From: Escherichia coli | Lineage (GTDB): Bacteria; Pseudomonadota; Gammaproteobacteria; Enterobacterales; Enterobacteriaceae | Length of the DNA: 64,000 bases | Reading direction: 5' to 3' (one strand) | Assembly (NCBI RefSeq): GCF_050320075.1 | Contig: NZ_CP190018.1 | Shown here: positions 15,500 to 17,568 of the stretch, one piece after another | Position numbering within the stretch: the first letter of the stretch is position 1 | How the letters are laid out: every line of letters begins with the position of its first letter | Notes under the pieces: model-generated | The model's input: the letters and a program-made list of their open reading frames with translations, nothing else | The model's database searches: none | What the model was told of the DNA's origin: nothing | Made by a program: the position numbers and the translations under genes

Positions 15500-16171
15500 A
15501 AAGAACACGTGTTTGCCACAAAATAATCCGCCTGCGCAAATTGACCTACCTCAATAGCGGTAGAAAAACGCACCACTGCCTGACAGGCCAGTTAAAAAAA
15601 TGCTATAAAATTCAGCTTAATTTTTAACGGCAAGAGAGACAAAACAGCGAGCATGACACGACAAAAAGCAACGCTCATAGGGCTAATAGCGATCGTCCTG
15701 TGGAGCACGATGGTAGGATTGATTCGCGGTGTCAGTGAGGGGCTCGGCCCGGTCGGCGGCGCAGCTGCTATCTATTCATTAAGCGGGCTGCTGTTAATCT
15801 TCACGGTTGGATTTCCGCGTATTCGGCAGATCCCGAAAGGCTATTTACTCGCCGGGTGTCTGTTATTCGTCAGCTATGAAATCTGTCTGGCGCTTTCCTT
15901 AGGATATGCGGCGACCCGTCATCAGGCGATTGAAGTGGGTATGGTGAACTATCTGTGGCCCAGCCTGACAATTCTCTTTGCCATTCTGTTTAATGGTCAG
16001 AAAACCAACTGGCTGATTGTACCAGGATTATTATTAGCCCTGGTTGGCGTCTGCTGGGTGTTAGGTGGTGACAATGGGTTACATTATGATGAAATCATCA
16101 ATAATATCACCACCAGCCCATTGAGTTATTTCCTGGCGTTTATTGGTGCGTTTATCGGTAATGACTCCAAC

Positions 16172-16675
16172 TTACTGATAGTGTTTTATGTTCAGATAAT
16201 GCCCGATGACTTTGTCATGCAGCTCCACCGATTTTGAGAACGACAGTGACTTCCGTCCCAGCCTTGCCAGATGTTGTCTCAGATTCAGGTTATGTCGCTC
16301 AATGCGCTGAGTGTAACGCTTGCTGATTACGTGCAGCTTTCCCTTCAGGCGGGATTCATACAGCGGCCAGCCATCCGTCATCCATACCACGACCTCAAAG
16401 GCCGACAGCAGGCTCAGAAGACGCTCCAGTGTGGCCAGAGTGCGTTCACCGAAGACGTGCGCCACAACCGTCCTCCGTATCCTGTCATACGCGTAAAACA
16501 GCCAGCGCTGACGTGATTTAGCACCGACGTAGCCCCACTGTTCGTCCATTTCAGCGCAGACAATCACATCACTGCCCGGCTGTATGCGCGAGGTTACCGA
16601 CTGCGGCCTGAGTTTTTTAAGTGACGTAAAATCGTGTTGAGGCCAACGCCCATAATGCGGGCGGTTGCCCGGCAT
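16172..16675 (-). CDS. insB: IS1 InsB
   Basis: 167-aa ORF overlapping insA. Confidence 0.9.
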
Positions 16676-16869
16676 CCAACACCATTCATGGCCATATCAA
16701 TGATTTTCTGGTGTGTACCGGGTTGAGAAGCGGTGTAAGTGAACTGCAGTTGCCATGTTTTACGGCAGTGAGAGCAGAGATAGCGCTGATGTCCGGCAGT
16801 ACTTTTACCGTTACGCACCACGCCTTCAGTAGCTGAGCAGGAGGGACAACTGATGGAGATGGAAGCCAC
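16594..16869 (-). CDS. insA: IS1 InsA
   Basis: 91-aa product [22 protein letters not shown]. Confidence 0.95.
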
Positions 16870-17568
16870 GGGAGCACCTCAAAAACACCATCATACACTA
16901 AATCAGTAAGTTGGCACCATTACCCGTTTATCTGGGCAGCCTACTGCACAGTAACGAATAAATACGCACGCGGATTTAACGGAATTACCGTTTTTGTCCT
17001 GCTAACGGGAGCAAGTCTGTGGGTTTACTATTTTCTCACGCCACAACCAGAAATGGTATTTAGCACGCCAGTCATGATTAAACTCATCTCTGCGGCATTT
17101 ACCTTAGGATTTGCTTATGCTGCATGGAACGTCGGTATATTACATGGCAACGTCACCATTATGGCGGTAGGTTCGTATTTTACGCCCGTCCTTTCCTCAG
17201 CGCTTGCAGCCGTGCTGCTCAGCGCCCCGCTGTCGTTCTCGTTCTGGCAAGGCGCGCTAATGGTCTGCGGCGGTTCCCTGCTCTGCTGGCTGGCGACACG
17301 TCGTGGCTAAAATAATTGTCGGGTCTACGGCCCGGCAGTTAATCAGATAAATTCCGACAATATAAAAAAATAAATTTCAAATACCAGTAGTTCACCTTAT
17401 ATTTCATTTCGACTTCGATCACATATCGATAAATAATATTATTTCATCTATTTTTCTCATTGTTTTTAATCACCATTCTATTTTAAAAACAGTATGTCAT
17501 TTATAAATGACGCCGTTTAAAATTCGTTTAGAAAATACGTTTAACGATAATTAAAAGGATTCTGTTAA

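Follow-up and report, generated by a model that had tools for sequence, protein, structure and literature searches.

The window analysed here is a stretch of 64,000 nucleotides of Escherichia coli DNA, in which the gene yddG lies in two pieces on either side of an insertion sequence. The 5' fragment (positions 15653-16156, plus strand) holds codons 1-168 and the 3' fragment (16933-17310, plus strand) holds codons 169-293 and the stop codon. Between them, after Ile168, lies a complete IS1 element of 768 bp (16157-16924, minus strand), recognised by its length and its inverted repeats. An intact general porin gene (17569-18669, plus strand; 366 aa) follows downstream.

The terminal inverted repeats of the element, IRR on the left side (16157-16179; GGTAATGACTCCAACTTACTGAT) and IRL on the right (16902-16924; GGTAATGGTGCCAACTTACTGAT when read on the reverse strand), match in 20 of their 23 bases. 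Because the transposase genes lie on the minus strand, IRR abuts the 5' half of yddG and IRL faces the 3' half and the porin. The insA gene (16594-16869, minus strand; 91 aa) contains the Pfam domains Zn_ribbon_InsA and HTH_Tnp_IS1 (PF03811, PF12759), each at full length, and the overlapping insB' frame (16172-16675, minus strand), an ORF of 167 aa, covers positions 1-131 of the 131 of DDE_Tnp_IS1 (PF03400). The A6C motif for the -1 programmed frameshift that yields InsAB' (TTAAAAAACTC; 16610-16620, minus strand; IS1 positions 305-315) is undamaged. In the near-identical strain YZLc1-3, PGAP joins the coding sequence at the same point and names the element 'IS1 family transposase, programmed frameshift' (WP_223216367.1), not 'IS1A'. 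Consensus scanning also found a promoter-like site that overlaps IRL (16890-16917, minus strand) and would read into insA, away from the porin; its position agrees with that of the weak promoter PIS1 described over this end (PMC12428005). The same source gives IS1 a length of 768 bp, inverted repeats of roughly 30 bp, target duplications of 8 or 9 bp and a promoter over IRL that is extremely weak.

Compared with the IS1 family of E. coli and Shigella (IS1A-IS1F and related isoforms), the copy in yddG has the same 768 bp and imperfect inverted repeats, the same insA/insB' arrangement with its A6C -1 frameshift, the weak IRL promoter, an 8-bp target duplication and, in close relatives of the window, adjacent deletions. 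It differs from the family in no structural respect and carries every sequence feature by which IS1 is recognised. Its intact ORFs and ends, along with an IS1-adjacent deletion in the related strain Ec-U3 (see below), suggest that it may be capable of transposition.

The element is flanked by two copies of the direct repeat CGTTTATC, at 16149-16156 on the left and 16925-16932 on the right. The duplication is exactly 8 bp long, the next base outward being mismatched on each side; a duplication of 9 bp, the usual length for IS1, was rejected since base 9 is unequal at both sides. An 8-bp match on its own would be expected by chance with a probability of about 1.5e-5. The decisive evidence comes from the gene itself. 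When IS1 and one copy of the repeat are taken out, 15653-16156 joins to 16933-17310 in 882 nt, that is, 293 codons and a stop codon, whereas retention of both repeat copies shifts the frame. Over 882/882 nt the rejoined gene equals the intact yddG that is annotated in many complete E. coli genomes, that of strain 042 among them; the 5' fragment corresponds to nt 1-504 and the 3' fragment to nt 505-882, each at 100%. The rejoined 5.5-kb locus (fdnG'-yddG-porin-LRR) likewise has a one-piece match in at least 44 genomes, with a bit score consistent with one mismatch. Because the wild-type allele is restored exactly, chance is excluded and the structure is that of a simple transposition. The simple IS1 insertion with an 8-bp duplication and the in-frame rejoining to 293 codons, both reported in the first-pass annotation, thus held on re-inspection.

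The protein encoded by the rejoined gene scores 471.2 bits against NCBIfam NF008676 (cut-off 194), which makes it a YddG equivalog. It has two EamA repeats (Pfam), and its residues 1-292 can be aligned with 5I20, the solved structure of YddG. It shares these two repeats, which form the 10-helix DMT fold, and an adjoining fdnG with YddG of E. coli (b1473; homologue PDB 5I20), an aromatic amino-acid exporter of the DMT superfamily. In the window, by contrast, the gene is cut after residue 168, in the region where the second EamA repeat (158-285) starts, and only the N-terminal repeat can be made. The ORF list contains a truncated fusion of 194 aa (15653-16237, plus strand), in which 168 YddG residues are followed by 26 encoded by IS1 and then a stop; it includes the first of the two EamA repeats only. 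The sole start codon that the 3' remnant has of its own is that of an internal ORF of 85 aa. Judged from this architecture, the transporter function of YddG has probably been lost, in line with the inactivation that had been proposed. The earlier label of an aromatic amino-acid/paraquat exporter also agrees with the equivalog assignment and with the literature on export: YddG has been tied to the export of aromatic amino acids and yddG of Salmonella, together with ompD and smvA, is reported to be required for the efflux of methyl viologen (Santiviago 2002).

No second yddG is present within the 64-kb window. In YZLc1-3, the closest complete genome, the chromosome has yddG at a single place, the 160-kb ColV-type and 46-kb NDM-5 plasmids carry no homologue (tblastn, E > 1), and the pair of genes annotated on the 2-kb plasmid does not include yddG. 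A functional copy elsewhere, named at the outset as an observation that would overturn the reading, was thus found neither in the window nor on the chromosome and two larger plasmids of YZLc1-3. The strain and its clone should be unable to export aromatic amino acids, and possibly paraquat, by way of YddG, which is useful for predicting phenotype from genotype or if the strain became a production host.

The porin downstream matches Pfam Porin_1 over its full length, and the exact protein was found on at least 1000 contigs. PGAP names it 'porin OmpC' at this locus and 'yddL: porin' at the same position in other strains. Its score against the NCBIfam OmpC subfamily model (NF007841) is 495 bits, barely above the cut-off of 484, and the OmpF and PhoE models score nearly equally. 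The position of the gene is that of yddL, 258 bp 3' of yddG, and not the ompC locus. In K-12 yddL is a pseudogene, in contrast to the full-length and apparently intact gene (366 aa) of the window lineage, and the window porin is presumably the ortholog of Salmonella OmpD. The 258-bp intergenic region (17311-17568, plus strand; 27% G+C) is undisturbed and contains three promoter-like matches. Directly after the yddG stop codon, a 13-bp stem-loop without a U tract is predicted (17313-17341, plus strand; -18.2 kcal/mol, ViennaRNA fold), for which a simple terminator scan made no call. The right end of IS1 (16924) lies 644 bp from the porin ATG (17569). The distance of about 250 bp that had first been given for the insertion instead corresponds to the 258 bp between the yddG stop (17310) and that ATG.

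A survey of related isolates, as suggested in the first-pass annotation, found the insertion in YZLc1-3, Ec-U3 and the draft assembly GCA_003007875.1. Among 5,426 complete E. coli genomes, the full structure has a single 100% match, in YZLc1-3, which is also the only genome with the right junction (GGCACCATTACC joined to CGTTTATCTGGG). The left junction (...GCGTTTATC joined to GGTAATGACTCC) occurs in YZLc1-3, in Ec-U3 and, with an offset of 2 bp, in strain 144. These strains come from chicken faeces in Yangzhou, China (YZLc1-3), human urine in Burkina Faso (Ec-U3) and a dog in Scotland (strain 144). The left junction has been assembled independently in three public genomes, which rules out an artefact of assembly. 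The 194-aa fusion protein has been deposited exactly once, as the hypothetical protein PSF63270.1 of GCA_003007875.1, in which a contig of 5,965 bp matches window 10614-16579 with one indel.

Window 5468-64000 differs from the YZLc1-3 chromosome (NZ_CP123240.1) at two positions (39474 and 52785), and in the RefSeq record of that strain PGAP annotates yddG as two pseudogene fragments flanking IS1. The event is thus a textbook IS1 knock-out that is already known through the public annotation of a near-identical genome. The window is nevertheless not the YZLc1-3 record itself: window 1-5467 (gadB-gadC-digH-dosC') adjoins a second IS1 directly, whereas in YZLc1-3 another 10,551 bases lie between the IS1 and the matching sequence.

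We then compared SNPs over the 31 kb that the window shares with YZLc1-3, Ec-U3, strain 144, CFSAN061763, LH85-a and Z0117EC0051, seven genomes in all. Four derived alleles (11717, 18810, 36534 and 37454) are common to the window, YZLc1-3 and Ec-U3, and all four are absent from strain 144 and from CFSAN061763, LH85-a and Z0117EC0051, in which the site is empty. The draft contig of GCA_003007875.1 spans only one of the four sites, 11717, and has the derived allele there. Because its carriers share the junction and derived SNPs, the insertion is not confined to a single isolate but characterises a small subclade, and its junction makes a convenient clone-specific marker. The event had first been described as clean and probably recent. 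It is clean, but recent only in a relative sense: it is common to YZLc1-3, Ec-U3 and GCA_003007875.1, its two complete-genome carriers come from different hosts and continents, four derived SNPs accompany it, and Ec-U3 already has a secondary deletion. A clean duplication, then, need not mean that an event arose in the isolate at hand.

In Ec-U3 both the IS1 and its left junction are the same as in the window, but window 16925-17537 is missing. This deletion of 613 bp beside IRL left no duplication and took the 3' remnant of yddG together with the region before the porin, of which 31 bp remain. The order of events is thus insertion first and adjacent deletion second, and the window and YZLc1-3 therefore keep the ancestral state. 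The IRL end is again joined to CGTTTA, the deletion endpoint having these 6 bp in common with the original target; target preference or microhomology may have been involved. The same two steps, a simple insertion followed by an adjacent deletion, are known from stepwise IS-deletion mutations in the Lenski long-term lines (PMC11708052), where the element is IS150, whereas here it is IS1 in natural isolates. The deletion also forms the arrangement TTGGCA-16 nt-GATAAT, with the -35 element inside IRL, a native GATAAT and the IS1 end 31 bp before the porin ATG. Such a hybrid promoter may rewire porin expression, and Ec-U3 is the place where an IS1-dependent change in the porin merits testing.

Disruption of yddG is rare, since the gene is of essentially full length in 5,399 of the 5,426 complete genomes. 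In strain 144, the IS1 is of another isoform (24 positions different, including both ends), the left flank runs 2 bp further (...CGTTTATCTG joined to GGTAGTGAC; junction k-mer ...TTTATCTG joined to GGTAGTGAC), and an adjacent deletion extends to window 18489, inside the porin gene. An identity of this insertion with that of the window was rejected on the basis of the 2-bp offset, the 24 differences in IS1 and the absence of the four clade SNPs; these comparisons show that it arose separately, on a sister background. In 23CRST036, a strain of another lineage, IS1A has inserted near codon 127 of yddG and duplicated 9 bp; this third insertion is unrelated to the others, and two further genomes show a match pattern like that of 23CRST036 and apparently have the same insertion. 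A simple insertion, a later deletion beside it and a second, separate insertion at a distance of 2 bp together make a neat natural example of known IS1 behaviour.

Overall, we consider it very probable that a single ancestral transposition of IS1 knocked out yddG with nearly neutral consequences and probably left the porin unaffected. A chromosomal IS1 isoform would have transposed into yddG between codons 168 and 169, duplicating 8 bp of target, and would have left a 194-aa product with the first EamA repeat and a presumably unexpressed 3' remnant. A single such event, in the common ancestor of a small subclade within one E. coli lineage, would have been passed on by descent. It was most likely a neutral or nearly neutral insertion at a local IS1 hot spot, and the porin, which keeps its own upstream region, is probably unaffected. 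A plasmid source for the element was rejected, the IS1A/IS1B-type copies on the YZLc1-3 plasmid being only about 93% identical to it. The insertion appears to be an ordinary event, of little significance beyond strain bookkeeping.

A first alternative, also raised in the first-pass annotation, is that the insertion alters expression of the porin, either by polarity, if transcription from the yddG promoter no longer reads through, or by transcripts that start within IS1 and run outward. Insertions of IS1 are polar whichever way they face; yddG and the porin gene share a strand, and the 258 bp that separate them hold no canonical intrinsic terminator. Given a hairpin without a U tract, the two genes could be co-transcribed and, if so, polarity of IS1 could take away the read-through share of porin expression. 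However, the porin is intact, and its AT-rich upstream region is undisturbed and has promoter-like sites of its own. As to outward transcription, the 5' terminus of IS1 can serve as the -35 part of a hybrid promoter (PMC5526668), and the secondary deletion in Ec-U3, which puts this terminus 31 bp from the porin ATG, creates just such a TTGGCA-16 nt-GATAAT arrangement. In reporter work, however, IS1 termini alone were silent, and the 5' terminus is only half a promoter that needs a complementary element within the adjacent 20 bp (PMC5526668). In the window, the IRL end is not followed by a suitably spaced -10 element, 644 bp separate the IS1 end from the ATG, and PIS1 and insAB' read the opposite way, toward fdnG. 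A complete outward promoter at the porin-facing end was considered and rejected, none being found by consensus scanning. An effect of the window IS1 on the porin is thus possible but unsupported by these sequence features, and we consider it unlikely.

A second alternative is that loss of a YddG-porin module has been selected in this lineage, IS1 acting as an adaptive knock-out with which a stepwise erosion began. On nearly identical backgrounds, IS1 has inserted twice, in phylogenetically independent events, with the same orientation and only 2 bp between the sites, for which the post-hoc chance under a uniform target is about 0.006 (about 5 in 882 bp). Both lines also have IS1-adjacent deletions toward or into the porin (613 bp in Ec-U3; to 18489 in strain 144), and the IS1A insertion at about codon 127 adds a third hit in a separate lineage. 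In Salmonella, moreover, yddG and the porin gene ompD are reported to act jointly in methyl viologen efflux (Santiviago 2002). Recurrent insertions in yddG with recurrent deletions toward the porin could thus reflect selection instead of a neutral hot spot. Against this, loss is rare, 5,399 of 5,426 genomes having yddG of intact length; the sample consists of three to four genomes and of sequence alone; and IS1 is known for non-random insertion and adjacent deletions without selection.

IS1 prefers targets with an AT-rich core bounded by G or C, and the targets in the window and in strain 144 both have an AT-rich core between G or C. Non-random placement of IS1 has also been described (Boyd and Hartl 1997). 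Insertions 2 bp apart suggest a local hot spot in yddG, and we favour an intrinsic hot spot over selection for loss of YddG and the porin, which we regard as improbable. The same low probability applies to the fuller proposal that CGTTTATCTG is a genuine IS1 hot spot and that loss of YddG and the porin was selected in the lineage, with a possible rewiring of the porin in Ec-U3.

The window contains two IS1 copies in opposite orientation (5468-6235 and 16157-16924), which bracket 9.9 kb and are 95.3% identical. Recombination between them, the end of a composite transposon or an assembly artefact could be suggested by this arrangement and by the copy at 5468, which has no target duplication in the window, but we regard these explanations as extremely improbable: the yddG copy has a perfect duplication with both flanks collinear with empty-site genomes, an inversion would have moved one copy of the repeat away from the other, neither IS1 looks chimeric across the 36 of 768 positions that distinguish the two, and the junction was found again in independent assemblies. 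An inversion or composite transposon between the two copies was rejected on the exact duplication and on the occurrence of the rejoined locus in one piece elsewhere. In a separate Rfam scan of the window, positions 15400-17600 gave no match; the matches outside this interval were the fdnG SECIS element, two IS200-associated STnc490 RNAs and a group II intron fragment.

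The window carries a second IS1 (5468-6235), opposite in orientation to the yddG IS1 (16157-16924) and 95.3% identical to it, which interrupts bdm at its 5' end, roughly seven codons into the gene. In YZLc1-3, the nearest complete E. coli genome, this second IS1 in bdm is bounded by an 8-bp duplication, GAAAATTC; in the window its IRL end instead abuts the middle of dosC, at the boundary with 1-5467. Relative to YZLc1-3, 10,551 bp are absent from the window beside this element, comprising the 3' part of dosC, dosP, ddpXABCDF, osmC and the 5' end of bdm. This loss is an IS1-adjacent deletion and sets the source strain apart from YZLc1-3. 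Over 5468-64000, the two sequences mismatch only at 39474 and 52785. At 39474, YZLc1-3 is the sole genome that differs, with all other compared genomes alike, and the difference is therefore private to the YZLc1-3 record.

Sequence has also been lost beside the yddG IS1 in Ec-U3, a human urine isolate that shares the insertion event (L005 6041-6840, NZ_CM192149.1; counterpart of window positions 16925-17537). The IS1 and its left junction are the same as in the window, and 613 bp are gone beside the IRL; CGTTTA is common to the deletion endpoint and the original IS1 target. After the deletion, a TTGGCA carried by IS1 precedes a native GATAAT by 16 nt, an arrangement found 31 bp before the porin ATG. 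Together these two elements may form a hybrid promoter.

The yddG insertion in strain 144, from a dog, is an independent event (L006 6043-6810, NZ_CP023364.1; counterpart window positions 16158 and 18489). Its IS1, a different isoform, differs at 24 positions and entered yddG 2 bp further along with orientation unchanged, and the four SNPs of the YZLc1-3/Ec-U3 subclade are absent from this strain. An adjacent deletion has removed the 3' end of yddG and reduced the porin gene to its last 180 nt.

Two IS1 copies were located in 23CRST036, a member of another lineage (L002 3355-4122 and 5458-6225). There, IS1A interrupts yddG near codon 127, flanked by a 9-bp duplication, CAGAAAACC, and a leucine-rich-repeat gene holds an IS1 copy 100% identical to the yddG IS1 of the window, with an 8-bp duplication, CACAAATG. 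Among the insertions examined, the duplication was 8 bp in all three simple non-IS1A cases and 9 bp in the sole IS1A case.

Downstream of the porin gene (17569-18669), an open 421-aa reading frame (18833-20098) has weak leucine-rich-repeat matches. The PGAP annotation there is limited to a "partial" LRR pseudogene of 288 nt (19430-19717), although two LRR proteins are listed in newer annotations of other strains. With a G+C content of 34-44%, the porin-LRR block is AT-rich. The 90%-identity protein cluster of the porin also includes 603-aa LepA (elongation factor 4) proteins, one of which is its representative; this co-clustering looks like a database clustering artefact rather than biology.

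An in-frame TGA divides fdnG (12374-15421) into two ORFs of 803 and 195 aa. A pseudogene reading was rejected, since an Rfam SECIS element (14781-14839, minus strand) coincides with this TGA, which is therefore a selenocysteine codon. Two mutually inverted IS200/IS605-type elements (10067-10779 and 49966-50678; 96.2% identity) each contain one tnpA gene and one Rfam STnc490 match. The copy beside fdnI is common to all lineage members examined, including the strains without IS1 in yddG. Finally, the RHS region (36241-43630) encodes a 1403-aa RHS element core protein and a pentapeptide-repeat partner, a pair flanked on either side by decayed ISAs1 transposase genes (two in total), and Rfam identifies a group II intron D1-D4 fragment at 37202-37310.
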